DNA of 20,000 nucleotides from an uncultured virus (IMG/VR IMGVR_UViG_3300044608_001664) (IMGVR_UViG_3300044608_001664), one strand, 5' to 3'. Counted from the stretch's first letter, positions 1-18,352 are shown. Program-made: numbers and translations. The notes: generated by a model from the letters alone, not told the origin.

Positions 1-318
1 GGCTTGCTCCTTTGGGTTACTTTCTTCATTACCCTTGGCTTCAATAGCCGCCGAACCTTCGGTGGAAGCATCAGCAGCGGGAGTTTGCTCCTCACTCTGA
101 TTCTCTTCGTTCTGTGCACTTTCGCCTGAGCTGCCAGCTCCATTCTGCTGACCTTCCGGTGCAGCTTCACCTTCCCAGGCTTGCGGGTTATCCGATTCCG
201 ATGCCTCTTGTTCCTGCTCTTGTTCAGGAGGGGTTTCAGCTTCCTGAGTGAACGTGCTCGGATCAAGAGCCAAAAGCTCCTCATCCGACATATCCAGGAT
301 ATTGCGTTCTTCAGCCAT
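1..318 (-). CDS. N4 gp57-like acidic virion morphogenesis protein (5' part; runs off window start)
   Basis: ATG at 318, just after the stop of the 321..662 ORF. Open frame MAEKNAILDMSDEELLALDPSTF... is very E/Q-rich. Position two genes downstream of the portal matches N4 synteny. Confidence 0.7.
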   Translation of the reverse strand, partial: MAEERNILDMSDEELLALDPSTFTQEAETPPEQEQEQEASESDNPQAWEGEAAPEGQQNGAGSSGESAQNEENQSEEQTPAADASTEGSAAIEAKGNEESNPKEQA

Positions 319-320
319 GA

Positions 321-662
321 TTACTTGACCTCTTCAGCCAGAATCTCATCACGGGTAGCTTCATCAGCTTCCACCGAACGACGGGCCATACCAACACGAG
401 TTTCGAGGGTATCCAGATAATCACGGAAACCACCCACAGCAATCATTTGCTTGTGAATGGAAGTTTGGATTTCCGGTGCCTGCATATTCGAATCGGAAAG
501 CAGATGCACAAGACGAATGGCTTCTTGTTCGAAATACCCTTCTTGAATGACTTTCTTGAAGTCACGGTTATTCTTCAGACGTTCCAAAGCAGAACCAAGA
601 TCCACAATCTTTTGGGCTTGTTTGATGTTGTTTTCCAGTTGGTGTAGTTCGTTAGTATTCAT
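321..662 (-). CDS. N4 gp58-like conserved protein
   Basis: 113 aa helical ORF (LERLKNNRDFKKVIQEGYF) directly downstream of the portal, as in N4-like phages. Confidence 0.75.
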   Translation of the reverse strand: MNTNELHQLENNIKQAQKIVDLGSALERLKNNRDFKKVIQEGYFEQEAIRLVHLLSDSNMQAPEIQTSIHKQMIAVGGFRDYLDTLETRVGMARRSVEADEATRDEILAEEVK

Positions 663-685
663 TTTCTATCAGTGCTCTCAAAGTT

Positions 686-713
686 AATAGAACGGGGGTT
701 GTGAAAACCCCCG
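686..713 (-). terminator. Putative intrinsic terminator/hairpin after portal
   Basis: 8 bp stem CGGGGGTT/AACCCCCG (693-713), followed on the minus strand by TTCTATT. Confidence 0.5.
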
Positions 714-726
714 CAATATAAATCAA

Positions 727-2892: not shown

Positions 2893-2953
2893 TCAAAATC
2901 CTTTGTGTGGATACAATACTACTTTCTTACTTCAACTTAATCAGGAGTTACCT

Positions 2954-3376
2954 ATGCGTATTAAATCTCTTCACCCGAATTTCAAGATGCCTGCCAAATC
3001 AACCAAGGGTGCCGGTGCTTTCGACATTTACATGCCGACATCCGGTATTGCCTTTGGTGACAGCCCCACTGTAGTACCTCTCGGCTTTGCTGCTGAAGTC
3101 CCTGAAAATCATGTTGCCTTGATTTTCCCTCGCTCTGGTGTAGGTGCTAATCAAGGTGTTGAGTTGAATAATACCTGTGGTGTTATCGATTCAGATTTCC
3201 GTGGTGAATGGAAAGCGTTTATTCGAACTAAAAGTGGCAATCATTTTAGCTGGAATTCTGGCGATCGAGTTCTTCAGTTTTTAATTGTCCCGGTAGCTGA
3301 TGTTGAATTGGAGTTGGTAGATTATTTAAATGAGACTGAGCGCGACTCTAGAGGCTTCGGTTCTTCCGGTAAATAA
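2954..3376 (+). CDS. dut: Trimeric dUTPase
   Basis: Motifs AGAFDI, PRSG, GVIDSDFRGE, GDRVLQ and C-terminal RDSRGFGSSG. RBS AGGAG precedes ATG 2954; the ORF-track start at 2843 overlaps the portal and is unlikely. Confidence 0.95.
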   Translation: MRIKSLHPNFKMPAKSTKGAGAFDIYMPTSGIAFGDSPTVVPLGFAAEVPENHVALIFPRSGVGANQGVELNNTCGVIDSDFRGEWKAFIRTKSGNHFSWNSGDRVLQFLIVPVADVELELVDYLNETERDSRGFGSSGK

Positions 3377-3388
3377 CAAGGACAAAAG

Positions 3389-3414
3389 AAAAGCCCCCAG
3401 TTACGGGGGCTTTT
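3389..3414. terminator. Bidirectional intrinsic terminator
   Basis: AAAAGCCCCC-AGTTAC-GGGGGCTTTT between the convergent dUTPase and 3433..4104 genes. Confidence 0.85.
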
Positions 3415-3432
3415 AATTGGGGATGATTTTCG

Positions 3433-4104
3433 TTACACCCACCCATTTGCGTGCAACCGGGTGTGCTCGTGATTCTCGGGATCTAGTTCCATCCCGGATT
3501 CTTTCAATCGCAGACACTCAGCCTCGTACTTCGCTGCCCAGTTATTACCAGCGTTGAATTCATTGACCATCCCAATAGGGGTATGTGCACGTGACGCAAC
3601 GAAGTACAGCAAGGCTTCCAGATGACTATAGGGAAGCTCCAGCTCCACAGCATCAGGATCAAATGGTTCGGTGTACACCAACTGAGGGTGGTTAGCTCGG
3701 TACACCGCGACAATCCCATTAGTCTTCAGGCTCTCAGGGAGTTCCTGGCTTTTAGCCGCAATAGCCTGTGGTACACGAAGAGTATCCATGCTGACCATGA
3801 AGCAACTGTAAGGGTCAGAGTAATCATTCAAGCCCAGATCAGCATCTTCTGCCGTGGTTACTCGTTCAACCTTGTGGAGGTCAGTGACTTGTAGCTTGTA
3901 CAACGTACTCCCCTCAACAAGAGGAATAGTTGCTCGTCCTTCCTTGAGATTGAATCGCTTGTACAACGCAGTCAATCCTAACGAAACATGGGAAACAAGC
4001 GCAGGGTAATTGGCTGCGTCTAATTCCCCATTCGTATGTGCACCAAGCGCCAACTGGGAGAATTCTCCATAAGCCAGTTGAGTAAATACTTCTGATAATT
4101 TCAT
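3433..4104 (-). CDS. N4 gp67-like virion protein (probable head-tail adaptor)
   Basis: 223 aa directly downstream of terminase. N-terminal L.YGE.SQL, GLTALYKRF.L and C-terminal ALLYFVASR...KYEAEC..L, ..NGWV pattern. Confidence 0.75.
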   Translation of the reverse strand: MKLSEVFTQLAYGEFSQLALGAHTNGELDAANYPALVSHVSLGLTALYKRFNLKEGRATIPLVEGSTLYKLQVTDLHKVERVTTAEDADLGLNDYSDPYSCFMVSMDTLRVPQAIAAKSQELPESLKTNGIVAVYRANHPQLVYTEPFDPDAVELELPYSHLEALLYFVASRAHTPIGMVNEFNAGNNWAAKYEAECLRLKESGMELDPENHEHTRLHANGWV

Positions 4105-4113
4105 ACTGTTTCC

Positions 4114-5724
4114 TTAAACGATATAAGAAGCCATACGGTCAACTGCTTCATTAGGAGAGTCGATATCCCACATCCCATCTTGGGATGACGATTCACGTAG
4201 GGGCGATTCCTCCGATGGTTTCCATGGGGTTAAGGATGACAACATAGAGATTGTATCTGCAAAGTCATCATGCTTACTCTTGAATCCCCCCGGTGTAACC
4301 AAGCTCAATTCAGTGACAGCTTCAGCCAATTCAGGGGAGGTCTTCTTTTCAATCGGGAAAAAGACCTTCCGTGCTTTGAACAAAGGAACCACGGTATTGA
4401 AGCGAACCAGCTTGTTGGTATTTGGACGGATACCTGGCTTGGACTCATTACCATCTGAAGCCAAGGGGAAATAGATATTGCGATTCATCATCTCCCCCAT
4501 GATCCAAGGAATGAATCCACCCTGCTGTCCAGATACCTCGATACCTACTTGCTGGGGGCGGTACATCTGAGCCAGCCTAAACAGGTCATCCACAGTTTTA
4601 TCCATGAGCTGCCGCTTACAGATTCCGTCCACCCACAACCAATCACCCACATTGTTATAGGCCCAGACGCTGATTACTGAGAAGTCAGACTTCTGTTTCT
4701 CCGAGGTTGCAAAGTCGGTGGTGATATAAAAGTTGAATCGTCCCTTGTTACGGATCACCGCATCAATCTTGTACCACGCGATATCGTGATCTTGGATCAT
4801 CCGATCTTCATCGGACATAATCCGGAGCATCAATTCCTGGTTGAAGGTGTCCACCTTCCCCAGCTTCACAGCGTTGTCGTACTGCTCCTTCACATAGTCA
4901 TAGGTGAATCGATCTGGCCAGCTACCCCGGAACTCCTCACGAGTACAGGGAAACTGCTCACACACCGGGAATACGTTGACACTCCAAGCTCCAGATTCCA
5001 CTGCCTTGTACAGAGGATCTTTCGCATTGAAAGGCGTACCCGACCAAATGATCATGTTCTTGGTGGGGTGCAGTGCGTAGTTCACTGCCTTGTACACCGT
5101 GTCCTCTACCGCAGCAATCACGGTAGCCGAGCGTGCATCCTCGTCGCTAATCAGGTCATCGAGCACCGCCAATTGAGGGCGCTTACCCATTTCCTTGGCA
5201 CCACGAACACCTGTCTTGGCACCATACCCTTTGACGATGAACACCTTTCCATCGGCGTTCTCAAACTCCCATCTGATATCCGTGAAGTGAATCCGGGGGA
5301 TGTACTGCTTCAGGAAATCAGAGTTCTCCCATCGAAACTCCAGGTTCTTCCGCATGTTCTTGACGCCATTCTCGATGGAGTCTGAAACATACAAAGCCAG
5401 GTCAACCCGACCGAAGCCAGGAAGCTCACCATACGTAGCGATGTAAAGGAACAGGTATTCCCCCATCACAGTGGTTTTAGCGATACCCCGGTGGCACAGA
5501 TTGAGAATGCGTCGGCCACCATCAGTGATGGTATCCAACATGAAATAGTGAACCAGGGGAGTCTTATGCTCCTCGCCCGAGGAACCATTCACCAACTTGA
5601 TGAAGGTCACAAACTCCAGAGCAAAGTCGCTTGGAACATAGTTCACCGGGATTCGGTAGTCTGCGTGGTTAAGGTAATCCTCTACCTTCCATGGCATCCC
5701 GTCAGGATGTAACTTACGGGACAT
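4114..5724 (-). CDS. terL: Terminase large subunit (N4 gp68-like)
   Basis: 536 aa; variant Walker A CHRGIAKT, Walker B LAVLDD, coupling motif SGTP, RNase H-like nuclease residues TTDFA and HDDFAD. Confidence 0.95.
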   Translation of the reverse strand: MSRKLHPDGMPWKVEDYLNHADYRIPVNYVPSDFALEFVTFIKLVNGSSGEEHKTPLVHYFMLDTITDGGRRILNLCHRGIAKTTVMGEYLFLYIATYGELPGFGRVDLALYVSDSIENGVKNMRKNLEFRWENSDFLKQYIPRIHFTDIRWEFENADGKVFIVKGYGAKTGVRGAKEMGKRPQLAVLDDLISDEDARSATVIAAVEDTVYKAVNYALHPTKNMIIWSGTPFNAKDPLYKAVESGAWSVNVFPVCEQFPCTREEFRGSWPDRFTYDYVKEQYDNAVKLGKVDTFNQELMLRIMSDEDRMIQDHDIAWYKIDAVIRNKGRFNFYITTDFATSEKQKSDFSVISVWAYNNVGDWLWVDGICKRQLMDKTVDDLFRLAQMYRPQQVGIEVSGQQGGFIPWIMGEMMNRNIYFPLASDGNESKPGIRPNTNKLVRFNTVVPLFKARKVFFPIEKKTSPELAEAVTELSLVTPGGFKSKHDDFADTISMLSSLTPWKPSEESPLRESSSQDGMWDIDSPNEAVDRMASYIV

Positions 5725-5882
5725 CAGTTCACCGAAGCCAGGATTACACGGACATCCGGAATCTCATCCCGAACCAAGGCCATCACCTGCTCATAGTTCT
5801 GCACCGATTCATGTTGAATGCGGAACAGCTTGGCCACGCCTTCCTTGTCCCGGACTGCTACTACGAAACGGGGCGTACTCAT
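5724..5882 (-). CDS. Small hypothetical protein (52 aa, MSTPRFVVAVRDKEG...ILASVN)
   Basis: Below the ORF-track cutoff; translated by hand. Fills the gap exactly, with an ATGA overlap to the upstream gene and a TGATG overlap to terL. Confidence 0.75.
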   Translation of the reverse strand: MSTPRFVVAVRDKEGVAKLFRIQHESVQNYEQVMALVRDEIPDVRVILASVN

Positions 5883-6229
5883 TGCGCCCCCTCAATCACG
5901 AACCAGTCTTCAGCCAGCATATCGGCTTGCGAAGCCAGCCAACCCATCTGGATATCCCCTGCTGCCGTCTTCATCGTGATGCACGGGAGTACGTTGGCCG
6001 AACCATCAATGGTTTGGGCAGCATACTCAGCATTCCTCTTGCTCCAGAAGGCAGACGATGGGATTCGCTTACCACCCATGGGTCCAGACAAAGCCAGCCA
6101 CATACCCTGGCCATACCATCCTTCCCGAGCAACTCGGTGACCATCCTTCAAGGCATGGAGTGCCTCACCAAAATCCAAGCCAACAGAATTACATCCCGCT
6201 ACCTGCACAGCATCATTCACTTGGTTCAT
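5879..6229 (-). CDS. DUF2829-family protein (Tad2-like, putative anti-Thoeris signal sponge)
   Basis: Signature FGEAL.ALK.G.RVAR.GW.G.GMWL ... GWLASQ.DMLAEDW; ATGA overlap with the upstream gene. Confidence 0.85.
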   Translation of the reverse strand: MNQVNDAVQVAGCNSVGLDFGEALHALKDGHRVAREGWYGQGMWLALSGPMGGKRIPSSAFWSKRNAEYAAQTIDGSANVLPCITMKTAAGDIQMGWLASQADMLAEDWFVIEGAQ

Positions 6230-6921
6230 TCAACAACCTCCGCAGTACCTTCAATAATCAATTTCCCATGGGCAACTTCCTGAGCGTTCATTGCCCCACT
6301 TTCCAACATCAACCGTTGCTGACGAGCCAGTTCCATCGTCGTAGTCCTCAACGCGGCGATAGATGAATCCTCCTTCACCCCGATATCAAGCTCGACCTTC
6401 TTCACCTCGGGAGCCTTCAACTGGGTCAACAGGGAATTGGCAGCGTCACACCGCACCTTCTCGCTCTTGGCATTCACCATCAGATCGGCCTGCACATTCA
6501 GCGCCCTCTGATAGAGATCCTGGTTCAACACATGGCTGGGGATCAGCGTCTGTTCGAAGATCAGATTGACCAGCTTGGATTTGTTGTACGCAGTGACGTA
6601 GGAAGCAATGTCCTTGGCTTGAATACCCTGTTGAACAAACCGCTGATACTTATCGGGGAATGTCTTGGTATATGCCTCGATATTGGTACAGCCCATCAGT
6701 TTGAAACTGACATAACGTACCGCATCAATATAACTAGATACCTTGAACTTCCCATCAGCCATTACCTTTGTATAGCTGATCAGGTTATCCCGGTAATTCT
6801 CAAACATCTCTGGATCAGAGAGCGTGTTGTTAATCTGGTCAATCAACTCCTGGTTGATAGACTTCTTTACCTTATCGGGTAAAGCCAACTTGAATTGTTC
6901 AAGTGTCAGCATATAAATCAC
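6226..6921 (-). CDS. N4 gp69-like protein (possible terminase small subunit)
   Basis: Last gene before the genome end, upstream of terL; motifs Y.DAV.YVS.KLMG, AY.KTFP..Y, SEKVR.DAA. The start may be ATG 6912 rather than GTG 6921. Confidence 0.75.
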   Translation of the reverse strand: MIYMLTLEQFKLALPDKVKKSINQELIDQINNTLSDPEMFENYRDNLISYTKVMADGKFKVSSYIDAVRYVSFKLMGCTNIEAYTKTFPDKYQRFVQQGIQAKDIASYVTAYNKSKLVNLIFEQTLIPSHVLNQDLYQRALNVQADLMVNAKSEKVRCDAANSLLTQLKAPEVKKVELDIGVKEDSSIAALRTTTMELARQQRLMLESGAMNAQEVAHGKLIIEGTAEVVE

Positions 6922-8450: not shown

Positions 8451-8585
8451 ATGCCCTACGTCATCCCCGCAGATCAGCTTAATCGTGCTTACCGTATTGC
8501 GTGTGGTCGTGCTCGCTTGGATAGCCTTGGAGATATTACCCCGTGTGATTTCTCCAATATGTACGATGGCTGTGCCTTCGAGTAA
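8451..8585 (+). CDS. Small hypothetical protein (44 aa)
   Basis: RBS AAGGA, ATG 8451 (MPYVIPADQLNRAY...). Confidence 0.65.
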   Translation: MPYVIPADQLNRAYRIACGRARLDSLGDITPCDFSNMYDGCAFE

Positions 8586-8588
8586 TCA

Positions 8589-8849
8589 ATGAATGCCTGC
8601 GTTAGTAGGTACTTTGTTGACCTATATCAAGTAAATGTGCCGACCTATTACCTTGGTCATTCATAGGGTATTTCCTAATCAAATCAATGGGGTTTACTCC
8701 CATTCGGTATATTAGAAAATGACCTCTTCCTGCCCTGAAAAAGCGTGAAATATTTCACACTTTTTACTTGGTGTTCTTAGGTAACATGCGCCCCGAAATT
8801 CGGGTGTGGTTACCAAAGATAGCGTCCTTGAACCAACAAAAATAAGGAC
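8589..8849. other. Multi-hairpin non-coding element (candidate ncRNA or structured DNA)
   Basis: Five consecutive inverted repeats at 8589-8664, 8667-8724, 8738-8765, 8775-8819 and 8824-8849; no ORF of 60 aa or more. Confidence 0.5.
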
Positions 8850-8858
8850 TTAACCCCT

Positions 8859-8880
8859 TGCGCTCCGCGCATGGAATGGC
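8859..8880 (+). promoter_or_regulatory. Virion RNAP hairpin promoter P3
   Basis: TGCGC-TCC-GCGCA-TGGAA-TGGC; same spacing as P1. Confidence 0.85.
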
Positions 8881-8924
8881 AAATTCTGCCCCTATCCCTC
8901 ACCTCTTATTACTGGAGAAATATC

Positions 8925-9200
8925 ATGGCTTTCAATTCCTCTTCTGCTGCCGCTGCCACACCAGCTACCCAATCCGAAAACTGGAAGGCTCAAGGCTTCC
9001 TGAACCTGTATCTGCCGTCCAAGGGTGGCCAACGCCGTAAGCTGGGTGCTATCCCGCTCAAGGATGCCAAGGTCAACGAGAAACAACTTCGTGCTTGGCT
9101 GGAAGAAGATCCGTCCCGTGTGACGCAGCTTCTCGCCAAGCTGGAAATCGAGTATCAATCCGCTGCTTCGAATGACGAAAACGCCTTCGCTCTCGATTGA
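8925..9200 (+). CDS. Early protein, possibly N4 gp2-like ssDNA-binding RNAPII cofactor (91 aa)
   Basis: RBS GGAG; has its own promoter and terminator. Flexible N-terminus then KAQGFLNL..GAIPL, reminiscent of N4 gp2, with an acidic tail. Function is inferred. Confidence 0.6.
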   Translation: MAFNSSSAAAATPATQSENWKAQGFLNLYLPSKGGQRRKLGAIPLKDAKVNEKQLRAWLEEDPSRVTQLLAKLEIEYQSAASNDENAFALD

Positions 9201-9217
9201 CCCTGTGTTTCTCCCTG

Positions 9218-9258
9218 TAACCGTCTGTCCCTTAACTGGGACAGGCGGTTATTTTTTT
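9218..9258 (+). terminator. Intrinsic terminator
   Basis: TAACCGTCTGTCCC-TTAACT-GGGACAGGCGGTTA followed by T7. Confidence 0.9.
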
Positions 9259-9303
9259 GTCTGTTGTCCCTTTACACAAAACCAAGACAGTTGAATCAGC
9301 ATA

Positions 9304-9324
9304 GCCCTTCGGGCATGTGTTGGA
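9304..9324 (+). promoter_or_regulatory. Virion RNAP hairpin promoter P4 (GAA-loop variant)
   Basis: GCCC-TTC-GGGC-ATGTGT-TGGA; same architecture as P1-P3, placed after a terminator and before a new operon. Confidence 0.75.
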
Positions 9325-9353
9325 ATGTCTAACTTTTATTTAAGGGGATACTC

Positions 9354-9458
9354 ATGATCCAGATTATTCAAACCATCCGAGATACTGCAATGCTCGGTGC
9401 TTTCTTGATAGTGCAGGGTATTGCCCTGCTTATCGGTCTTAACCCATTCAAGGAGTAA
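9354..9458 (+). CDS. Small hydrophobic peptide (34 aa)
   Basis: RBS AAGGGG; MIQIIQTIRDTAMLGAFLIVQGIALLIGLNPFKE. Confidence 0.6.
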   Translation: MIQIIQTIRDTAMLGAFLIVQGIALLIGLNPFKE

Positions 9459-9461
9459 GCC

Positions 9462-9494
9462 ATGTCTATCTTTGTATTTGGGGGTACACTCTAG
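9462..9494 (+). pseudogene. Orphaned 5' end of the 10158..10514 gene (MSIFVFGGTL*)
   Basis: Strong RBS AAGGAG; IFVFG matches IFCFG at 10176-10190 on the far side of the HNH gene. Confidence 0.75.
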
Positions 9495-9517
9495 GTATTC
9501 ATTCAAAGGAAAAGCAA

Positions 9518-10174
9518 ATGAAACCTATCGTATATACCCTTGGGCAGCACATGCCTAATACCCGTCTTATCTTTATTCAAGAGGTGCCACGAACCAATCC
9601 AAAAGTGCGTCGTGCTACTTTTCAGTGTGCATGTGGAAATGTGGTTGATTTAGATATTGCATGGGTGGTTCACCTAAACACCACCTCCTGTGGGTGTTAC
9701 CGCAGTGAGGTAGTCGCAGAGAAAAACACCAAACATTCTCACGCAGTAAGGGAAAACACCTCTGGGGCATACCGTTCATGGCAAGCCATGCACCAAAGAG
9801 TAAAAGCAAATCCGTTATACGCCCACGTAAATGTGTGTGATCGGTGGTCCGGTGATGATGGCTTTGCCAATTTCATTGCTGACATGGGAGATCGTCCGGA
9901 GCAATTCAGTATTGAGCGACGAGACAACTCCAAAGGATATGAGCCATCCAACTGTGAATGGGCAGATAGAATTACCCAAGCCACCAACACCAGTAATACT
10001 GTTTTAGTAAGTATTGGGGATGAAACACACTCCATAAATGAATGGTGCCGTATCAAGGGAATTGTGTACCACATTATTAAGCAACGTCGCAGGCGTGGGA
10101 TGAGCATCGAAGATGCCATTACCACACCCCTTAATGAATCAAAGAGAGGACGTAAAAATGGACAAAAATCCTAA
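9518..10174 (+). CDS. Free-standing HNH homing endonuclease 1
   Basis: C.CG...TTSCGC zinc-type N-domain, YRSWQAM..R, VCDRW, F..DMG.RP...SIERRDNSKGYEPSNCEW nuclease motif, C-terminal HTH-like SINEWCR. Confidence 0.88.
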   Translation: MKPIVYTLGQHMPNTRLIFIQEVPRTNPKVRRATFQCACGNVVDLDIAWVVHLNTTSCGCYRSEVVAEKNTKHSHAVRENTSGAYRSWQAMHQRVKANPLYAHVNVCDRWSGDDGFANFIADMGDRPEQFSIERRDNSKGYEPSNCEWADRITQATNTSNTVLVSIGDETHSINEWCRIKGIVYHIIKQRRRRGMSIEDAITTPLNESKRGRKNGQKS

Positions 10175-10514
10175 AATATTTTGCTTTGGATCGAATTTGG
10201 CAGGGATTCATGGTGCAGGTGCAGCACGCTTTGCTGTAGAGAATCATGGTGCTCGCTACCGCCAAGGTATCGGGCTTCAGGGTAATAGTTATGCCATTCC
10301 CACCAAGGATCGAAACATCAACACGCTGCCCTTGGATGATATTCAAGAGCATGTGGATGTGTTCATCATCTTTGCTCAAGAACACCCTGAACTGTCCTTC
10401 GAAGTAACCCGAATCGGGTGTGGTTTAGCTGGTTATACCGATTCAGACATCGCACCCATGTTCAAGGGTGCTCCCTCAAATTGCATTCTTCCTGAAGGAT
10501 GGAGAAACCAATGA
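10158..10514 (+). CDS. Conserved phage protein, macro-domain-like (FGSN..G.HG.GAA family)
   Basis: Motifs IFCFGSNLAGIHGAGAA, G.GLQGNSYAIPT, F.VTRIGCGLAGY; AGAGGA RBS before ATG 10158. Confidence 0.75.
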   Translation: MDKNPKIFCFGSNLAGIHGAGAARFAVENHGARYRQGIGLQGNSYAIPTKDRNINTLPLDDIQEHVDVFIIFAQEHPELSFEVTRIGCGLAGYTDSDIAPMFKGAPSNCILPEGWRNQ

Positions 10515-10735
10515 ACCGAGCAGACCGTAGAGCTATCGCCCGAGGTGAGGGGCGACATGAATCCATGATCGAGATCGTCGATCATGACTCTTTGGCTGAA
10601 TACGCCTTTGCACTCTATGACTGGGATGTAGGCAGACGCATCCTTGATAACCAGTACTGCCTGTTTATCAGCCATCAACTCAGTTACTTGGATATTCGTG
10701 ATGAGTTCATGGAAGACCCATACCTACTTCACTAG
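10511..10735 (+). CDS. Hypothetical protein (74 aa, MNRADRRA...)
   Basis: GGAG RBS; ATGA overlap with the upstream gene. Confidence 0.7.
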   Translation: MNRADRRAIARGEGRHESMIEIVDHDSLAEYAFALYDWDVGRRILDNQYCLFISHQLSYLDIRDEFMEDPYLLH

Positions 10736-10744
10736 GAGATCCTC

Positions 10745-11653
10745 ATGGACACGCTTGAACAGATTCAACGGCAGGAAAACATCGAGATGCAATACAACCG
10801 TAAGCACATCGATGATCGTATTCGTAGTGAGATTGAATCCAATCTGATCATGCAGGAGAAGATCGAGCAAGGTATTCAACTGATCACTGAGTACATGGGC
10901 AAGACCTACTATGACTCCAAGAACGCACGCATTGCCCAACTTCAAGGGATGTGCCTGCGTACCTTGGTAACTGAAATCTTCGTAGGTGTGGCCTATTGTC
11001 AGATCGAAGAGTTGTTCACTTCGGTCACTGCCATGATGGCTGGACGCTTGAGGTTCTCCGATAAGCTGGATGCCATCAAGACTGTGGCTGAATTGATGGC
11101 TGTGCTCTGTCTGACTGATGCCTTCGATATCTTGAAGACTTCCAAGACATCCAGCCTGATGGTGGTATCTCGCATTCCCTTGAGTGCCAGTACCCTACGC
11201 TTCATCGAGAACAGCCAGTACCTGCCTCCGATGGTGTGTGAGCCTCTGGAATTGGTGAATAACTACTCCAGTGGTTACCTCACCCACAACGACTCGCTTA
11301 TTCTGGGGAAGGGAAACCATCACCAAGGGGATCTCTGTCTGGATGTACTCAACCTGATGAATCGGGTTCCCTTGGCACTGGCTACAGACTTCCTCAGTAG
11401 TGTTGAGGAAGATCCTACCTTCGTCACTGATACCCCTGAGAAAGCCCAGCAATGGGACAACTTCAAGCGTCAGAGCTATGAGTTTTACCTACTCATTGCT
11501 CAGTATGGCAATCGCTTTTGGTTAACACATAAAGTGGATAAACGTGGTAGAATATATTCCTGTGGATACCATATAAACACTCAGGGAACCTCATTCAAAA
11601 AAGCCTGCGTTGAGTTAGCAACCCAGGAAATTGTTACGGGAGTACCTACTTAA
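10745..11653 (+). CDS. RNA polymerase II subunit 1 (N4 gp15-like)
   Basis: 302 aa; T7-family motifs LPPMVCEP, SGYL and DKRGRIY; RBS AGGAG. Confidence 0.92.
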   Translation: MDTLEQIQRQENIEMQYNRKHIDDRIRSEIESNLIMQEKIEQGIQLITEYMGKTYYDSKNARIAQLQGMCLRTLVTEIFVGVAYCQIEELFTSVTAMMAGRLRFSDKLDAIKTVAELMAVLCLTDAFDILKTSKTSSLMVVSRIPLSASTLRFIENSQYLPPMVCEPLELVNNYSSGYLTHNDSLILGKGNHHQGDLCLDVLNLMNRVPLALATDFLSSVEEDPTFVTDTPEKAQQWDNFKRQSYEFYLLIAQYGNRFWLTHKVDKRGRIYSCGYHINTQGTSFKKACVELATQEIVTGVPT

Positions 11654-11666
11654 TTAAGGAATACAA

Positions 11667-12344
11667 ATGGCGAAACCAAAGAAGGACGTTACCGGAGAAA
11701 TCTATGGAAGACTTACCATTACAGGTGATGCACCCTATCGGTCGAAAGACCGTCGGGTGTTCGTTACCTGTGAGTGTGGAAATACAAAAGATGTTCTTCT
11801 CAATAGCCTGCGTAGGAGGGAAACCACCTCCTGCGGCTGTTACCTTCAGGAACAGATAACCAAACATGGGGATGCCCACGCACGGTTGTACAAGATATTC
11901 AACTCTGTGCACAACCGGTGCTACTTAACTTCATCAGAACGGTATTCAGATTATGGAGGAAGGGGTATTACGGTGTGTGCCCAGTGGTTGAATAACTACG
12001 AAGCCTTTCGCGTATGGGCATTGAAGTCTGGATATTCCGAGGATCTCACCATAGATCGAATCGACAATAACAAGGGGTATTCCCCTGAAAACTGTCGATG
12101 GACTACCCGAAATATCCAGCAAAGGAACAAACGTGCTTTTGTTGGGGGAACCTCTGCATACCGTGGTGTAAGCCACTGCAAGCAAACAGGTAAATGGATT
12201 GCCATGATTAAGGTAAATGGCAAACAGAAAAACCTAGGAAGGTATCCCACAGAAATAGAAGCAGCCCAAGCACGGGACACCTACATCAAAGACAACATCT
12301 TAAAGGGCTTCACACTCAATTTTGAGAAAGGAATAATCCCATGA
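11667..12344 (+). CDS. Free-standing HNH-AP2 homing endonuclease 2
   Basis: YGRLT, CECG, TTSCGC, YGGRGITVC..W, LTIDRIDNNKGYSPENCRW, and C-terminal AP2 domain (YRGVS....KWIA.I....K.LG.Y....AAQARD). Confidence 0.92.
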   Translation: MAKPKKDVTGEIYGRLTITGDAPYRSKDRRVFVTCECGNTKDVLLNSLRRRETTSCGCYLQEQITKHGDAHARLYKIFNSVHNRCYLTSSERYSDYGGRGITVCAQWLNNYEAFRVWALKSGYSEDLTIDRIDNNKGYSPENCRWTTRNIQQRNKRAFVGGTSAYRGVSHCKQTGKWIAMIKVNGKQKNLGRYPTEIEAAQARDTYIKDNILKGFTLNFEKGIIP

Positions 12345-12397
12345 AAGCCATGGTTGAGCTGGCCACACCAGAGGTTGTCACCGGTGTCCCGGCATGA
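12341..12397 (+). pseudogene. Duplicated/orphaned 3' end of RNAP subunit 1 (MKAMVELATPEVVTGVPA*)
   Basis: Aligns codon-for-codon to KACVELATQEIVTGVPT* at 11600-11653, with the stop in the same position. Confidence 0.88.
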
Positions 12398-12422
12398 CTT
12401 CTACGATGCCATCAGTTATGTC

Positions 12423-12653
12423 ATGAGTGCTATGAGCAAGGGCACTCACTTCGTCTTCTATGGGCAGCAGTTGTATGGGGAATACGGGATAGCCACCGTA
12501 CCTCCTGCCAGCCATCTACCAGATGGTGCCTTCATGCTGGCCCCAAGAGGACGTTGGTACCTCGTCTTGAGTGGTGGACTAACTCCAATCAACTATTCAG
12601 ACATTCCTCCTGAAGTACGTCTGAACTGCCTGCTCATGGGCATCTCCATCTGA
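12423..12653 (+). CDS. Hypothetical protein (~76 aa)
   Basis: Open frame 12354..12653; ATG 12423 is the first in-frame ATG; true start uncertain. Confidence 0.6.
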   Translation: MSAMSKGTHFVFYGQQLYGEYGIATVPPASHLPDGAFMLAPRGRWYLVLSGGLTPINYSDIPPEVRLNCLLMGISI

Positions 12654-12701
12654 TCTAGCTATTCACAATCCTATTCATTTATCTATTCAAGGAGTATCCC
12701 A

Positions 12702-13961
12702 ATGACCCCATTTACCGGGTGGCAGTACCTGCTTATCGATGTGGCCAATCAGTTTGGGCTGGATAAGCTGCTCTTTGAGGAGCGTATCAAATGGGCTGAA
12801 GAGAATCTGGATCGACTGGAATCTCTGGTTGATCAGGCTGAAACCAAACCTTTGTACATGAAAGGTGTACAAGCTATTCGCAAGGCCCAGAAGGGTATCC
12901 CGACTGGTCATCTGATCGGCTTCGATGCTTGTTGTAGTGGTGTGCAGATCATGTCTGCCATCACTGGCTGTATCGCTGGTGCTACCGCTACTGGCTTGGT
13001 TGATCCCAATGTCCGTGCCGATGCCTATGCTGCCGTGACGGCCTCCATGAACGAACTGTTGCACAGCCAAGGAATCTCCGTGGATGTGTCTCGGGCTGAC
13101 GCGAAATTGGCGACGATGACATCATTTTACGGAAGCAAGGCCAAGCCTATCGAAATCTTCGGTGAGAAGACTCCTGAATTGGCTGCGTTCTACCAAGCTG
13201 CCAACATCGTTGCTCCGGGTGCATGGGAGCTGCTCCAGGATCTTCTGGCTTCATGGCAACCGTATCACCTGTACCACGCATGGAAGCTGCCTGATGGCTA
13301 CGATGCACGAATCAAGGTCATGGAGAAGAAGGAGTCTCGTATCGAGGTGGATGAGTTGGACCATGCCACCTTCACCTACGAGTACTACGTCAACGAGGGA
13401 ACCAAGAAAGGACTGAGCAATGTGGCTAATGTGGTGCACAGCATTGATGCCTATGTGCTCCGCTCTATCCATCGTCGTTGCAACTACGATGCGCCGATGG
13501 TCAAGCGTGCTTGCATGGCCTTGCTGGAGGAGATGGATCTGCGTAACGCCGGTATCACCGAGCAGGTGCCTCGGATACAAGATGAAAACTGCAAGATCGA
13601 CTACTACGTGAGCCAGTATGAGCGTAGTGGGATGGCTGATGTGGTGATCCTCCCGTATCTCAAGGATGGTAACCAGACCCAGTTCCTGTCGGATACGCAC
13701 ATCATGCAGTTGCTGGATATTGGTGAATCCATGATCGGATACGAACCCTTCGAAGTCATCACGATTCACGATGAATTCAAGTGCCATCCGAACCACATGA
13801 ATCACTTGCGTCAGCAGTACATCAACATCTTCGCAGAGTTGGCAGAGAGCAACATCCTCTCCGATATCCTGTCCCAGATCCATGGATGCAAGGGAGCATT
13901 CCCGAAGCTATCCGACAACCTAGGAGAAATCATCCGTGGCAGCAACTACGCGCTTAGTTAA
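12702..13961 (+). CDS. RNA polymerase II subunit 2 (N4 gp16-like)
   Basis: 419 aa; motif A FDACCSGVQ, motif B R..AK..TMT.FYG, ANVVHSIDA, motif C IHDEF; RBS AAGGAG. Confidence 0.95.
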   Translation: MTPFTGWQYLLIDVANQFGLDKLLFEERIKWAEENLDRLESLVDQAETKPLYMKGVQAIRKAQKGIPTGHLIGFDACCSGVQIMSAITGCIAGATATGLVDPNVRADAYAAVTASMNELLHSQGISVDVSRADAKLATMTSFYGSKAKPIEIFGEKTPELAAFYQAANIVAPGAWELLQDLLASWQPYHLYHAWKLPDGYDARIKVMEKKESRIEVDELDHATFTYEYYVNEGTKKGLSNVANVVHSIDAYVLRSIHRRCNYDAPMVKRACMALLEEMDLRNAGITEQVPRIQDENCKIDYYVSQYERSGMADVVILPYLKDGNQTQFLSDTHIMQLLDIGESMIGYEPFEVITIHDEFKCHPNHMNHLRQQYINIFAELAESNILSDILSQIHGCKGAFPKLSDNLGEIIRGSNYALS

Positions 13962-14004
13962 TGCCAGCACATTCAAGGGGATCAATCCTGCTTTATGGAA
14001 GGAG

Positions 14005-14172
14005 TTGATCCCCTGTAAGTGTGGGTACAACAAACTACATCTGATCAATCAAACCATGGGGGATACCCCTACGTTGAAGGTCAAATGTATCCGCTGTCGT
14101 CAATCTGGCCCCATAGCAGAGTCTGTTATAGACGCAGTAAGTAGGTGGAACATGCTGCACTTGATCATTTAA
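14005..14172 (+). CDS. Lar-like (restriction-alleviation family) zinc-ribbon protein
   Basis: PCKCG...VKCIRC...A...WN pattern; probable TTG start at 14005, start uncertain. Confidence 0.55.
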   Translation: MIPCKCGYNKLHLINQTMGDTPTLKVKCIRCRQSGPIAESVIDAVSRWNMLHLII

Positions 14173-14210
14173 GCAGGTGCCCTCTCGGGCACTTGGCGAG
14201 CTGGAAATTG

Positions 14211-14247
14211 AAGGGACATCTCCGAAAGGGGATGTCCCTTATTTTTT
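14211..14247 (+). terminator. Intrinsic terminator with GAAA loop
   Basis: AAGGGACATCTCC-GAAA-GGGGATGTCCCTT followed by ATTTTTT. Confidence 0.9.
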
Positions 14248-14267
14248 ACCCCATTCAAGGAGATCCC

Positions 14268-14387
14268 GTGTCTGCCGAACAATACCTTCAGATGCTGATC
14301 GATGGTCAGAAGATCAGCAGCATTCCCGTCCAACTGACTGAGCTGCTGTTCCTTCAGGGACTGATGAAACAGACCCCAAAGCAGTAG
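14268..14387 (+). CDS. Small hypothetical protein (39 aa)
   Basis: RBS AAGGAG and GTG start at 14268. Confidence 0.6.
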   Translation: MSAEQYLQMLIDGQKISSIPVQLTELLFLQGLMKQTPKQ

Positions 14388-14505
14388 CCATTCAGACAGT
14401 CGAGAGAAGTCCTTCAGAACTTCTCTTAGAAGTCTGACCGATATTCTAAATTTCGAAATCAACCAATTTTGGCTATATACAGCCGATAGTCTAAGGAGCC
14501 TCACC

Positions 14506-14772
14506 ATGCCCGTTAAATGCCTCACCGAAGCCCAGAAGAATTTCATCGAACTGGCGTACAAGAACAAGCACAAGACCCAGAAAGAGCTGGCTGTGTATCT
14601 CAAGACCTCCGAGCGCACCGTCAATCGTGTGCTGGAAGAACGTGGCCTGGCCACCCCCATCGCTCGCATCAAGGGTGAGGCGTATCAGGTCATGCAACTG
14701 CTGAAGAAGTATGGAGTTGATTACGACATGCTGAAGCGTGTCCTCCAGGACAAGTTCAATGCAGTTGCCTGA
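14506..14772 (+). CDS. Helix-turn-helix DNA-binding protein
   Basis: TQKELAVYLKTSERTVNRVL HTH; RBS AAGGAG. Confidence 0.8.
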   Translation: MPVKCLTEAQKNFIELAYKNKHKTQKELAVYLKTSERTVNRVLEERGLATPIARIKGEAYQVMQLLKKYGVDYDMLKRVLQDKFNAVA

Positions 14773-14992
14773 TAACCCTATTGGACAGTCTCGAATTGCC
14801 AACAGGAACCAAGAGTCTCTACGAGCACATCCATTGAATGTGTTCCCTACTCTTGGTTCATTGCAAGAAGTTATTGACCTTGCTGAATCCAAGATGCCCA
14901 TCACTGACAAGAACGAGATGCGTAGCTTGTTAATGACGTACCACAACAGTCTTTTGAAGGTATTGAATGACGAGAAAAACCAAAAGCCTTGA
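14759..14992 (+). CDS. Conserved hypothetical protein (77 aa)
   Basis: AGGA RBS, ATG 14759, overlapping both neighbours; ends ...LLMTYHNSLLKVLNDEKNQKP. Confidence 0.7.
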   Translation: MQLPDNPIGQSRIANRNQESLRAHPLNVFPTLGSLQEVIDLAESKMPITDKNEMRSLLMTYHNSLLKVLNDEKNQKP

Positions 14993-15419
14993 AGAACGGC
15001 TTTGGGGATTAATCGATAAGAAAGCAGAAAATGAATGTTGGCCTTGGCTAGGTGGGACCGTACCTAAAGGATACGGAACTATTAAGGTACTCATTGATGG
15101 TAAGTGGAAAACATCATATGCCCATCGAGAAATCCTTAAATTGAGTAAAGGGGTGCCCATAACCCCCAGAACACATGCTCTTCATTCTTGTGATAACCCA
15201 AGGTGTTGTAACCCACAACATCTACATTGGGGAACTAACTCCAAAAATAGAAGGGAAGCACGGGACCGCTTGCATAACCAAGGGAATCAAAAACTAACTC
15301 CTCAACAAGTTGACGTAATTAGAAACGACTCCCGTACTTATCAGGAAATTGCTAATGATTATTTTCTTCACCGAGATACCATTGCTCGCATCAAACAGAA
15401 GCGTGGATGGTTACCTTAA
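14967..15419 (+). CDS. Free-standing HNH endonuclease 3 (zinc-binding loop type) with C-terminal HTH
   Basis: ECWPWLG, GYG, AHR, HSCDNPRCCNPQHL..GT...N, KLT..QV..IR...YQEIA..Y. Confidence 0.92.
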   Translation: MTRKTKSLEERLWGLIDKKAENECWPWLGGTVPKGYGTIKVLIDGKWKTSYAHREILKLSKGVPITPRTHALHSCDNPRCCNPQHLHWGTNSKNRREARDRLHNQGNQKLTPQQVDVIRNDSRTYQEIANDYFLHRDTIARIKQKRGWLP

Positions 15420-15420
15420 T

Positions 15421-15462
15421 CACAACACACTACTGAAAGTGATCTATGGCCCAGTCACATGA
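15421..15462 (+). pseudogene. Orphaned 3' end of the 14759..14992 gene (HNTLLKVIYGPVT*)
   Basis: HNTLLKVI matches HNSLLKVL at 14942-14965 on the other side of HNH 3. Confidence 0.75.
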
Positions 15463-15631
15463 TAAGTGGGCACAGCTGCCCACTGAAGATATCCACCGTT
15501 ACGTTGAGAAGTACGAGAGCAGTGGTGCTCCTGGTAAGTGTTCTGCTCGTCGGCGTAAGAAGATCAAATTCTTTCAGAATGTACTGAATAAACGTAGGCA
15601 AGCAGAACGTCTGCTCACCCAATTCAACTAG
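15446..15631 (+). CDS. Small basic hypothetical protein (61 aa)
   Basis: ORF tiles between HNH 3 and the ATPase. Confidence 0.65.
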   Translation: MAQSHDKWAQLPTEDIHRYVEKYESSGAPGKCSARRRKKIKFFQNVLNKRRQAERLLTQFN

Positions 15632-15639
15632 GAGTAACC

Positions 15640-16653
15640 ATGCAAGTCAAAGTCAGTCAAGCCGTGGCAATGATCACGGCTTTCATTCGTGCCCATCTGG
15701 TGCCGATGTTGGTGGGCAGTCCGGGTTCCGGTAAGTCCCAGATCGTTCACCAGATCGCTGCTGAATACAAACTCAAGGTCATTGACCTGCGTTTGAGTCA
15801 GTGTGATCCCACTGATCTGTTGGGATTCCCTTCCATCAAGGGGGATCGTTCCGGTTACGTGCCCATGGAAACCTTTCCTGTGGAAGGGGACAAGATTCCA
15901 GAAGGCTACAACGGTTGGCTACTGTTCCTCGACGAGTTCAACAGTGCTTCACCGGCAGTTCAAGCAGCAGCTTACAAGCTGGTGCTTGATCGTATGGTCG
16001 GCAGCCATCAACTCCACAAGAATGTGGCTGTCGTCTGTGCCGGTAACCTGGAAACGGACAACGCTATCGTTCAGCCGATGAGTACTGCACTGCAGTCTCG
16101 TCTGGTGCACATGGAGTTGGTGGTTGATGCCAATGAATGGGTTGATTGGGCTACGTCCAACAACATCGATCACCGGATTACCAGCTACATCAACTTCAAG
16201 CCAGGGAACCTGTACACCTTCAAGGCTGATCACACGGACAACACTTACGCTTCACCGCGTACCTGGGAGTTCGCAGATCGTGTCCTGAAAGTCATGGACC
16301 TGGGATCTCCCCACATGCTGCCCATGCTGGCCGGTACGATCTCCGAGGGCGTATCCCGAGAGTTCCTGAACTTCTGCCGCAACTTCGCTTCGCTGCCGAA
16401 GATCAGTGAAATCGTCCAATCCCCGGATGCCATCACCGTCCCGTATGAACCCAGCCTGCTCTATGCACTGACCGGATCACTCAGTCACCACGCATCCATG
16501 GACAACTTCGATCAGTTGATGAAGTTCATCTCCCGGATGCCCCTGGAGTTCCAGGTGGTGTGTCTGCGTGAAACCGTCCGTCGCAACAAGGGCATGTTGG
16601 CTCACAAGGCAGTCCAGTCCTGGATTGCCAAGAACGCCACCGAGCTGTTCTAA
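15640..16653 (+). CDS. MoxR-like AAA+ ATPase (N4 gp24-like)
   Basis: Walker A GSPGSGKS, Walker B LLFLDE, AGN sensor, ALQSRL, SPRTWE. Confidence 0.92.
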   Translation: MQVKVSQAVAMITAFIRAHLVPMLVGSPGSGKSQIVHQIAAEYKLKVIDLRLSQCDPTDLLGFPSIKGDRSGYVPMETFPVEGDKIPEGYNGWLLFLDEFNSASPAVQAAAYKLVLDRMVGSHQLHKNVAVVCAGNLETDNAIVQPMSTALQSRLVHMELVVDANEWVDWATSNNIDHRITSYINFKPGNLYTFKADHTDNTYASPRTWEFADRVLKVMDLGSPHMLPMLAGTISEGVSREFLNFCRNFASLPKISEIVQSPDAITVPYEPSLLYALTGSLSHHASMDNFDQLMKFISRMPLEFQVVCLRETVRRNKGMLAHKAVQSWIAKNATELF

Positions 16654-17134: not shown

Positions 17135-17221
17135 AATCTTCAGTAGATTCTCAGGCGCATTCCCTGCGCCATACGAATAGGAGGCCCATGCCTCCTTTTT
17201 CTTTTTTTGAAAGGAAATAGC

Positions 17222-18352
17222 ATGGGCGCTGCTCACCCTATTCAAACCCGGGAAATAACTCCCGAGATTCAAAAGGCTTATGATAAAGCCAAAATCGGAT
17301 TAATGGCAAAGCAAGATACTGCCTTTTTCACCACCATCGTATTCAGTCTCAAATTGATTTGGGACTGGCTCACTCCCACAGCGGCTACCGATGGTTCTTC
17401 CATTCGGGTTAGCCCAGAATTCTTCATGTCCCTCGATCCAGAGGAACGTATTTTCCTGCTGGTTCATGAGTCCATGCACGTTGCCTTACTGCACATGACT
17501 CGCCTGGCTGGACGTAACCACCAGAAATGGAACATCGCCTGCGATCACTACATCAACCTGATGCTGACCGAACGTGGCTTCCGAATGCCCAGGAATGGCC
17601 TGGCAGACCCGCAGTACAAGGGACTCAGCTCGGACGAGATTTACCCTTTGCTACCTGATCAGCCCCAGTCTTCCACCTTCCAGATGGATCTGGAACTGCC
17701 TACGGAACCAGTGGAAGAACTAACCCAAGAGGTTGAAGACATCCTGATCCGGGCTGCCATGCAGTCCAAGATGCAGAACGACAAGCCAGGGAGTATTCCT
17801 GGTGATATCGAAATCTTCCTGAATAAGCTGTTGAATCCTAAATTGCCTTGGCAAAGGATTCTCCAGAAATATATTCAGAATCTCTCAAAACATGATTATT
17901 CATGGAGAAAACCGAATAGGAGATTCTTCCCGAATCATTATCTCCCGAGTATGTTCAGCGAAAAGCTGATGGATATCGCCATTGCTGTCGATGCCTCTGG
18001 ATCGGTTAGCGATGATGATTTCAAGGTATTCGTTTCAGAAACCCACGGTATTCTGAAAATGATGAAACCGGACAAAATAACCCTGATTCAATTCGACCGG
18101 AATATCAAATCGGTAGACCGGATTAATAATATCCGGGATTTAATGAACGTTAAATTCATTGGCCGAGGTGGTACTTCTATTGAGCCAGTCATGGATTGGG
18201 CAGCAGAAAACAAACCGAAACTTCTGCTGATATTCACCGATGGTGGATTTTATTTCCATACGGATGAATATAAAACCAATACCGTGTTTCTTATTCACAA
18301 TAACCCTGGATTTACTTCGCCATATGGCAAGGTGATTCACTACGAGATTTAG
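17222..18352 (+). CDS. HEXXH metallopeptidase-like + vWA domain protein (DUF2201 type, N4 gp25-like)
   Basis: TAATDG, HESMH, WNIACD..IN, MIDAS motif VDASGS, GRGGT, IFTDG; the usual partner of the MoxR ATPase. Confidence 0.9.
   Translation: MGAAHPIQTREITPEIQKAYDKAKIGLMAKQDTAFFTTIVFSLKLIWDWLTPTAATDGSSIRVSPEFFMSLDPEERIFLLVHESMHVALLHMTRLAGRNHQKWNIACDHYINLMLTERGFRMPRNGLADPQYKGLSSDEIYPLLPDQPQSSTFQMDLELPTEPVEELTQEVEDILIRAAMQSKMQNDKPGSIPGDIEIFLNKLLNPKLPWQRILQKYIQNLSKHDYSWRKPNRRFFPNHYLPSMFSEKLMDIAIAVDASGSVSDDDFKVFVSETHGILKMMKPDKITLIQFDRNIKSVDRINNIRDLMNVKFIGRGGTSIEPVMDWAAENKPKLLLIFTDGGFYFHTDEYKTNTVFLIHNNPGFTSPYGKVIHYEI

Follow-up and report, generated by a model that had tools for sequence, protein, structure and literature searches.

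HNH genes flanked by duplicated gene ends in an N4-like phage are consistent with homing by end replacement

Results

Three HNH genes each lie between two copies of a gene end

The 20,000-nucleotide (nt) stretch of DNA analyzed here in full (the window; IMG/VR record IMGVR_UViG_3300044608_001664) derives from an uncultured N4-like phage (Schitoviridae) of lake water, and its plus strand from ~7100 onward comprises early and middle genes. Within 6 kb of this region, three intact, free-standing HNH genes (HNH#1 to HNH#3) are found at the tips of three conserved genes, namely, the 5' end of the gp14-like (A1S_2505) gene (site 1), the 3' end of RNAP1, encoding the small subunit of RNA polymerase II (site 2), and the 3' end of the DUF6833 gene (site 3) (Table 1). 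At each site, one copy of the gene end resides in the intact open reading frame (ORF), and a second copy forms a short, stop-terminated fragment, or orphan, across the HNH ORF. We propose that each HNH gene adjoins a diverged tip that keeps the host gene whole, with the phage's own tip stranded on the opposite side, and that these genes home by means of replaced ends; we place the probability of this reading at roughly 0.78. It would explain how a nuclease gene can land in the tip of an essential gene, such as that of an RNA polymerase subunit, without an intron or intein.

An earlier note on this DNA had claimed that two diverged copies of a gene end flank every HNH gene, and all six peptide motifs on which that claim was based are indeed found on the plus strand, three in intact ORFs and three in orphans. 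The two copies of each pair share the same orientation and are 450–750 nt apart; the orphans adjoin the HNH ORFs to within 0–25 nt, and the working ends overlap the HNH ORFs at sites 1 and 3. Each HNH ORF is a reading frame of its own with a start of its own, outside any intron or intein. No Rfam family is matched in the window, and thus no group I intron is detected, in agreement with the earlier view that these genes need none; no ribozyme fold flanking an ORF, as in a group I intron, is detected in the window, and the same search finds RF00028 in one of the relatives described below.

Since a megablast search with window positions 9000–16000 against the phage collection gave no match, relatives were sought by protein. 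A search with RNAP1 matched 469 phage records, every one at <60% identity and mostly Schitoviridae; 368 records of the collection contain a gp14-like gene. We compared eight relatives, that is, the IMG/VR contig L001 (85% RNAP1 identity) and the metagenome contigs L085–L091 (66–84%), with the presence of HNH genes judged by tblastn; those without HNH homing-endonuclease genes are termed HEG-less. Record G001 was rejected as a comparator, being the identical phage (100% identity over the region). Sites 1 and 2 are free of HNH genes in all eight relatives, which also lack any relative of HNH#3; L088 and L090 carry an HNH#2-like gene just beyond DUF6833. Such patchy occupancy at one locus is characteristic of homing endonuclease genes.

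The sequencing runs that contain the window DNA are lake-water metagenomes, and there are no RNA datasets among the runs so listed. In four additional runs from lake water, contigs extend without a single difference across orphan 1, HNH#1, and the gp14-like gene, and likewise across RNAP1, HNH#2, and orphan 2; since these contigs span the junctions at sites 1 and 2, the layout is not an assembly artefact. Contigs of the X4 run that join 11517 to 12810 were considered as an HEG-less allele of this phage and rejected, as they come from a relative that is L001-like and diverged (in the tables shown, the contig piece at 12810 differs from the window at 34 of 219 letters).

RNAP1 switches ancestry before HNH#2, and orphan 2 matches the native end

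The two 150-nt flanks of each HNH gene were translated and aligned without gaps, and the best score was compared with that of same-length sham genes placed along the window. The flanks of HNH#2 score 68, a value that none of 188 shams reaches (sham maximum, 40). The working RNAP1 ORF ends in KACVELATQEIVTGVPT, with its stop at 11653, and residues 4–301 match phrog_2166, that is, the rebuilt gene is full length. RNAP1 of close relatives ends KAMVELAKQEVV.G.P; in L001 the C terminus is KAMVELAKQEVVTGVPA, and it is similar in L085, L086, and L088. When the L001 end is matched against the window, the best alignment is found at orphan 2 (43/54 nt at 12344), with a weaker one at the working end (35/54 at 11600) and no hits in shuffled sequence. 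The match of orphan 2 to L001 equals the gene-wide identity of 79%. Over 48 nt compared with L001, L085, L086, L087, and L088, orphan 2 shares 32–37 positions and the working end 24–32. A second copy of the relative's own RNAP1 end is present in none of the eight, as expected by the earlier note, which had held that HEG-less relatives would lack the duplication. These alignments identify orphan 2 as the native RNAP1 end.

The two copies at site 2 share 13 of 17 residues and 35 of 54 nt, and 9 of the 13 codons for identical residues differ synonymously, which accords with the earlier description of the copies as similar in protein and different at synonymous positions, and which indicates that both copies long evolved as working ends in separate lineages. 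The difference extends upstream of the duplicated stretch. Up to ~11471, the window RNAP1 matches the four close relatives tabulated at 43–56 of every 60 nt; from 11501, this falls to 36–41/60, and the match to L090 rises to 53/60. The control pair L001–L088 holds 49–54/60 across the same region, with no drop. The 102 nt immediately before the duplicated stretch match L090, otherwise a more distant relative, at 86/102 and the other seven at 61–68/102. By this measure RNAP1 switches at ~11480 to the ancestry of another, L090-like lineage. The L090-like tract, together with the first 60 nt of the gp14-like gene, diverged beyond its control (see below), is the pattern left by co-conversion of flanking DNA.

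Two side observations concern this site. The working RNAP1 end has a Cys (11606–11608) where orphan 2 and the close relatives have Met. A 10-codon frame that starts MTST (12394–12426) directly follows orphan 2, overlapping its stop as ATGA. Its start resembles that (MSTT) of an ~84-residue gene located after RNAP1 in L088, and L085 and L086 have related starts; the window lacks the remainder of this L088-type gene, and the gene after it (~12434–12653) matches L001 7157–7375.

Orphan 1 matches the native start of the gp14-like gene

The short pairs at sites 1 and 3 do not exceed chance within the window, and outside evidence is therefore needed. All three relatives that carry the gp14-like gene (L001, L085, and L086) start it with MSIFVFGSNLAG, equal to orphan 1, whose MSIFVFG corresponds to the first seven residues of the gene in each. 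The first 21 nt of the L001 gene match the window at ≥16/21 only at 9462 (17/21), with 0 hits per window in shuffled windows (n = 200); the match to the relative is 17/21 for the orphan versus 14/27 for the working start. Counted from the I codon, the first 60 nt of the working gene share 38–40/60 with L001 and L085, which share 53/60 with each other; beyond these 60 nt, identity equals that of the L001–L085 control. Residues 2–117 match phrog_2072, and residues 7–115 cover all 109 positions of NF049995. From these comparisons we assign orphan 1 as the phage's native gp14-like start and the first ~60 nt of the working gene as of foreign ancestry.

The site 3 duplication is recognized from the L001 gene end

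Orphan 3 begins one base inside the HNH#3 stop codon, ends in TGA TAA (15457–15462), and runs into the native gene that follows, which starts at 15446. An 18-nt DUF6833 end from L001 matches the window at ≥14/18 only at 15418 (15/18), with 0.005 hits per window in shuffled windows (n = 200). Orphan 3 has T, like 6 of 6 relatives, at a position where the working copy has S; this and the 26-nt overlap of the working end with the HNH#3 start are the only marks that set the copies apart. The duplication at site 3 is real, with a native copy that DNA does not distinguish. Two further propositions of the earlier note, that the orphan end is the one contiguous with the gene body in HEG-less relatives and that the gene is rebuilt with the element's own recoded end, hold for sites 1 and 2, where the working ends look foreign; at site 3 the two copies are not separable. 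Relatives of HNH#3 in the phage collection are ≤42% identical, and none adjoins DUF6833; IMG/VR yields one weak locus.

Table 1. Positions of the HNH genes, their target genes, and the paired gene ends in the window
Feature	Positions	Strand	Remarks
Orphan 1 ribosome-binding site	9450-9455	+	AAGGAG
Orphan 1	9462-9494	+	ATG 9462 to TAG 9494; MSIFVFGGTL and stop; assigned as native start of N4 gp14-like gene
Motif IFVFG	9468-9482	+	orphan 1
HNH#1	9518-10174	+	218 aa; phrog_374, E 1.5e-38; last 17 nt overlap rebuilt gene start
gp14-like gene, rebuilt (A1S_2505 family)	10158-10514	+	NF049995, E 3.6e-47; phrog_2072
gp14-like 5' end, assigned as foreign	~10158-10235	+	MDKNPKIFCFGSN
Motif IFCFG	10176-10190	+	rebuilt gp14-like gene
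RNAP1, RNA polymerase II small subunit (N4 gp15-like)	10745-11653	+	phrog_2166, E 3.8e-103
RNAP1 tract, assigned as imported	~11480-11653	+	identity switch to L090
RNAP1 working-end motif KACVELATQEIVTGVP	11600-11647	+	intact ORF
HNH#2	11667-12344	+	225 aa; phrog_374, E 1e-67; C-terminal AP2, E 1.3e-5 (below Pfam cutoff)
Orphan 2	12341-12397	+	MKAMVELATPEVVTGVPA and stop; last 17 RNAP1 codons + stop; overlaps HNH#2 stop codon
Orphan 2 motif KAMVELATPEVVTGVP	12344-12391	+	fragment
RNAP2, RNA polymerase II second subunit	12702-13961		phrog_2051, E 5.4e-153; Pfam RNA_pol
DUF6833 gene	14738-14992	+	probable start ATG 14759; PF20749, E 3.1e-5 (below Pfam cutoff); phrog_18415, E 2.6e-13
DUF6833 working end	to 14992	+	HNSLLKVLNDEKNQKP and stop; last 26 nt overlap HNH#3 start
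Motif HNSLLKVL	14942-14965	+	working DUF6833 end
HNH#3	14967-15419	+	150 aa; HNH_3-type; PF13392, 25.9 bits (cutoff 24.8); phrog_1872, E 3.4e-24
Orphan 3	15418-15462	+	NHNTLLKVIYGPVT and two stops (N HNTLLKVIYGPVT and two stops); stranded DUF6833 end
Motif HNTLLKVI	15421-15444	+	orphan 3
AAA ATPase gene	15640-16653	+	

HNH#1 and HNH#2 are plausible nucleases of PHROG-defined families

HNH#3 passes the Pfam HNH_3 model. HNH#1 and HNH#2 are matched to HNH only via PHROG families labelled HNH endonuclease, and NCBIfam gives no match for any of the three proteins. By inspection, HNH#1, HNH#2, and all the relatives so compared, members of a widespread AP2-linked family, have a D/E-R pair where I-HmuI has D-H. 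Nuclease activity of HNH#1 and HNH#2, predicted from their patchy, site-specific distribution, is plausible.

The layout recurs in other phages

Relatives of HNH#1 (51–63% identity) are found directly 5' of gp14-like genes in Stenotrophomonas C121, Xanthomonas RiverRider, Pectobacterium CB1, and the IMG/VR locus L099. RiverRider has an orphan, MLVFVFGY and a stop (L094 1455–1481), 10 nt before the HNH start; among its HEG-less relatives, Pokken starts the gene with MKKTIFVFGSN and PB119 with MCKPVFVFGSN. L099 has two orphan-like fragments, RIFVFGSN with a stop and CFLFVFG. The window, RiverRider, and L099 thus share, across genera, a break at FVFG or immediately beyond it, and this suggests that the HNH#1 clade has a single insertion point.

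Several side observations belong to these loci. The two FVFG fragments of L099 lie side by side (~904–936 and 938–961) with no HNH gene between them; in the same locus (identical to L100; 900–2654), the gp14-like gene is found between an HNH#1 relative on its 5' side and an HNH#2-like gene that starts at the gp14-like stop. A Cys codon in or just before FVFG accompanies HNH#1-type genes in four of five lineages (IFCFG, VFCFG, KCFVFG, and RCFVFG, but not CB1; window 10182–10184 and L093, L094, and L099 among the lineages compared) and is absent at that place from all five HEG-less starts seen. Cys at these cassette tips may reflect common descent of the tip or a change that confers resistance.

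HNH#2 is 58% identical to the HNH protein of Pectobacterium phage phiA41 and 48% identical to that of Possum, and both genes are found at the junction of RNAP1 and RNAP2. Within Cbunavirus, phiA41 and Possum carry this gene and CB4 does not. In both carriers, the HNH ORF ends in NFRK and a stop, the DNA from TTCAGGAAATGA on being identical to the end of CB4 RNAP1 (KFRK and a stop); their own RNAP1 genes end in EEFKRK (phiA41) and DKFKIE (Possum). The common 12 nt are followed by the same spacer in all three loci (L082 3140–3170, L083 3120–3150, and L084 3920–3950). They may represent a four-codon orphan read onto the nuclease or, alternatively, microhomology for insertion or loss, the sequence being ambiguous.

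L090 provides a further 5' case, in which an HNH#2-like gene (46% identity) separates an orphan start of the AAA ATPase gene from the working one, MQVTPVQATS, which is diverged. This orphan (MQVKVSQAIS and a stop, 9661–9693) shares 23/30 nt with L001, L085, and L091, and L088 has the same HNH gene as L090. As a side observation, L090 also has a 228-residue ORF (6109–6795) with zinc-ribbon-like cysteines and an AP2-like stretch that ends 4 nt before the RNAP2 start and is probably a further homing gene. The spacer between RNAP1 and RNAP2 measures ~50 nt in the native context of the window and 1600 nt in L090, and it looks like an insertion hot spot.

We also surveyed by flank score the IMG/VR loci with HNH#2-like genes, scoring 75 of 80 (five were dropped as too near the locus end, and several are near-duplicates); 3 of the 75 exceed all their own shams and score at least 44. 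In L067, a polymerase-like ORF of 489 residues ends in EVGDSWATKAPYHKN, and the HNH stop is where an orphan, KVNRSWAAKQPYSKT with a stop, starts; L053 shares this 3'-end layout, including the position of the orphan start. The top match, L066, was rejected as a gene-end pair, since it reflects a near-identical 16-residue repeat in short frames. The survey is blind to orphans shorter than ~10 codons and flagged neither RiverRider nor L090, and 3 of 75 is therefore a floor. The layout recurs across phages but is not the rule, and the "general strategy" of the earlier note was too strong a term, in that C121, CB1, and L088 lack an orphan and the layout is clear in only 2 of 75 unrelated HNH loci.

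An intron-borne counterpart is present in the same clade. RNAP2 of L087 is interrupted (8488–8726) between VITIH and DEFKCHPN (HDEF motif) by a 292-nt group I intron (RF00028, 65.5 bits), and 825 nt at the same RNAP2 site in L085 (~3877–4700) contain an ORF with an IDHID...NNSLSNL HNH motif. Together with the layout of the window, these insertions indicate that this phage clade uses both an intron route and a spare-gene-tip route. Both routes concern the polymerase operon and let an HNH gene invade a conserved gene that is not destroyed; RNA splicing keeps the gene whole in the one, whereas a spare DNA tip does so in the window.

Discussion

Relation to known mobile elements

Replacement of a gene end by a homing gene is known from fungal mitochondria, where mobile endonuclease ORFs (mORFs) form gene hybrids of an inserted foreign C terminus, an endonuclease ORF, and the displaced native C terminus, in atp6, atp9, cox2, and nad3 of Glomus sp. 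and, as cited there, atp6 of Allomyces macrogynus; the native ends are 91–98% identical to a relative, and the inserted ends 64–81% (PMC3630166). Site 2 is like these in that the native end is nearer the relatives (80% versus 65%). The mORFs differ in residing in organelle genomes rather than a phage, and in the cited passages only 3' (C-terminal) replacement is described, as opposed to the 5' replacement seen here as well (one of three sites, plus L090, RiverRider, and L099). The phage orphans, at 7–17 codons, are far shorter than the native ends of mORFs. Those passages name no endonuclease family, and the genes here are of the HNH type.

In the yeasts Torulaspora and Lachancea, WHO elements target a conserved gene, FBA1, whose 3' end is replaced whenever one integrates, without intron or intein splicing; their allele-specific cleavage was shown by experiment (PMC7282813). 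WHO proteins are intein-like nucleases of a nuclear genome, in contrast to the HNH-type proteins of a phage, and their repeated homing builds clusters of old copies, whereas the window has single orphans and only L099 has two stacked (PMC7282813). In common with mORFs and WHO elements, the window has two copies of each gene end with one of them stranded and, at sites 1 and 2, rebuilt genes of full length and an orphan that is the native copy. The cassettes of the window would work like the mORF and WHO class and are not members by descent, their nucleases being of the HNH type. The nucleases of mORFs belong to the GIY-YIG or LAGLIDADG families.

Free-standing homing endonucleases of T4-like phages, such as SegB and MobE, accomplish intronless homing with co-conversion of flanking markers (PMC2330249, PMC2790892). 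The window resembles these systems in having a nuclease gene beside its target, and the RNAP1 tract corresponds to the flanking DNA that is carried along when a break is repaired in mixed infection. For the T4-like systems no stranded duplicate of the target end is described, and in the window insertion is inside a gene tip rather than between genes. The words duplicat, remnant, and pseudogene are absent from the main text of this review of T4 mobile elements (PMC2988022), the passages of Barth et al. (2023) that match our search terms contain no stranded gene-end duplicates (PMC10448857), and the passages located by such terms in a paper on Skunavirus HNH genes and in two on Pectobacterium phages are silent as well. 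Term searches, supplements and subscription-only papers apart, yielded no account of a phage homing gene with a stranded copy of a gene end alongside. The idea of the mechanism is therefore not new, given the fungal mORFs and yeast WHO elements, and the phage instance is apparently undescribed; it connects the HNH genes of phages with elements that, to the extent of our search, have been described only in fungal mitochondria and yeasts.

Homing by replaced ends and its alternatives

According to our proposal, the enzyme would cut an allele without the HNH gene at or near the start of the orphan, and the break would be repaired from a co-infecting carrier phage. Along with the HNH gene, the copied tract would bring in the gene tip of the carrier, which resists the enzyme, and the far join, made at the break, would leave the recipient's own tip behind as a scar. 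We infer cutting, resistance of the rebuilt allele, and the route of repair because cutting and repair of this kind are established for free-standing phage homing endonucleases. To judge by the orphan boundaries, the gp14-like gene would be cut after FVFG and RNAP1 before KAMVELA.

A number of observations weigh against this reading, and some of them lend weight to other explanations. If repair were purely homologous, the tip of the recipient would be lost except where an orphan was present in the donor beforehand, and the far join thus needs an extra assumption; we slightly favor a non-homologous join, as in the scar model. The donor of the last 48 nt of RNAP1 was not found, these sharing 24–32/48 with all eight relatives. 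No orphan is visible beside the related HNH genes that occupy such sites in C121, CB1, and L088, and phiA41 and Possum have at most four codons of one, which speaks against generality. If the orphan is instead an inherited part of the mobile unit, composed of the new tip, the HNH gene, and the old tip as a far homology arm in the manner of WHO elements, then homologous repair would keep an orphan because the donor has one. The DNA beyond the target genes is variable (compare the ~50- and 1600-nt spacers), which would make a built-in arm useful, and the shared break after FVFG and the two stacked fragments of L099 would also fit. This alternative is unlikely, if the most serious one, since orphan 2 is as near L001 as is the rest of the genome (43/54 nt versus 79%), as befits native origin, and the phages that lack orphans indicate that one is dispensable; a second carrier of the same cassette, in which the orphans could be compared, was not found.

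The short distance and shared orientation of the copies could also arise if a tandem duplication formed in place when the HNH gene inserted and then drifted, with nothing imported. This is highly improbable, as the site 2 copies are less alike (35/54 nt) than are orphan 2 and L001 (43/54), their synonymous differences imply long evolution under selection in both copies, and the working tract resembles that of a different lineage (86/102 nt to L090). Chance resemblance at sites 1 and 3, leaving only the RNAP1 pair as real, is suggested by the flank scores, which on their own are not above chance (25 at site 1, reached by 99 of 188 shams; 34 at site 3, reached by 9 of 191). We consider it scarcely credible, given that the gene start and gene end of L001 match the window uniquely at the orphans (0 and 0.005 hits per shuffled window), orphan 1 retains both a ribosome-binding site and a start codon, and RiverRider and L099 carry a like fragment at the same place. 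For site 3, it must be added that the choice of orphan 3 as the stranded copy gains nothing from a 21-nt comparison, in which the working and orphan copies match L001 at 13 versus 15, L085 at 15 versus 13, L088 at 13 versus 13, and L090 at 18 versus 17.

The activity of two of the nucleases is a further point of doubt. No Pfam HNH model matches HNH#1 or HNH#2 even at E up to 1, and the similarity of HNH#2 to I-HmuI is weak (E 0.075), with Arg in place of the first motif His. The HNH genes might then be no longer mobile, or never have been, and serve as domesticated DNA-binding or nuclease genes, with the mosaic tips produced by ordinary phage recombination that happened to end nearby; the early regions of these phages are mosaic among relatives in any case. 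Against this improbable alternative, all three ORFs are intact, none has a relative at these sites in the eight relatives, and related HNH genes occupy the same gene tips in different genera; moreover, the RNAP1 ancestry switch ends exactly at the HNH gene, and the orphans abut the HNH ORFs. Homing by replaced ends, with a scar left by the far join, is the reading that we retain.

If so, foreign patches in core genes can mislead phylogenies and also gene calling, through orphan mini-ORFs, odd N-terminal extensions, and overlapping genes. We further suggest, tentatively and at somewhat less than even odds, that HNH genes with a spare gene tip constitute a widespread third class of phage homing element, besides intron-borne and plain intergenic ones, which takes either tip, 5' or 3', of a conserved gene. 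The stranded tip would be kept as a far homology arm, and a 5'-site orphan would act as a leader ORF that feeds ribosomes from the start signals of the host gene to the nuclease gene; the boundary would read out the cut site, and the whole would be a natural counterpart of engineered "cut and rescue" gene drives.

Other features of the window

A scan for promoters and terminators over 9200–15800 gave three promoter-like sites versus 9.4 expected and nothing usable for the cassettes. A strong terminator-like hairpin (9217–9252; 15 pairs and a T run) is located 3' of an ORF at 8871–9200, ~100 nt 5' of the ORF for a small membrane protein ahead of orphan 1. The ORF at 17207–18352 was considered as a fourth homing gene and rejected; it combines a DUF2201_N metallopeptidase with a VWA-like region and is conserved in L087 and L001, and the "HNH endonuclease" label of phrog_1314 is misleading for it. 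Finally, minus-strand late genes (portal, large terminase, and virion protein; 1–6921) abut the plus-strand early genes (7100 onward), and thus the window seemingly spans a genome-end junction or derives from a circularly permuted assembly.

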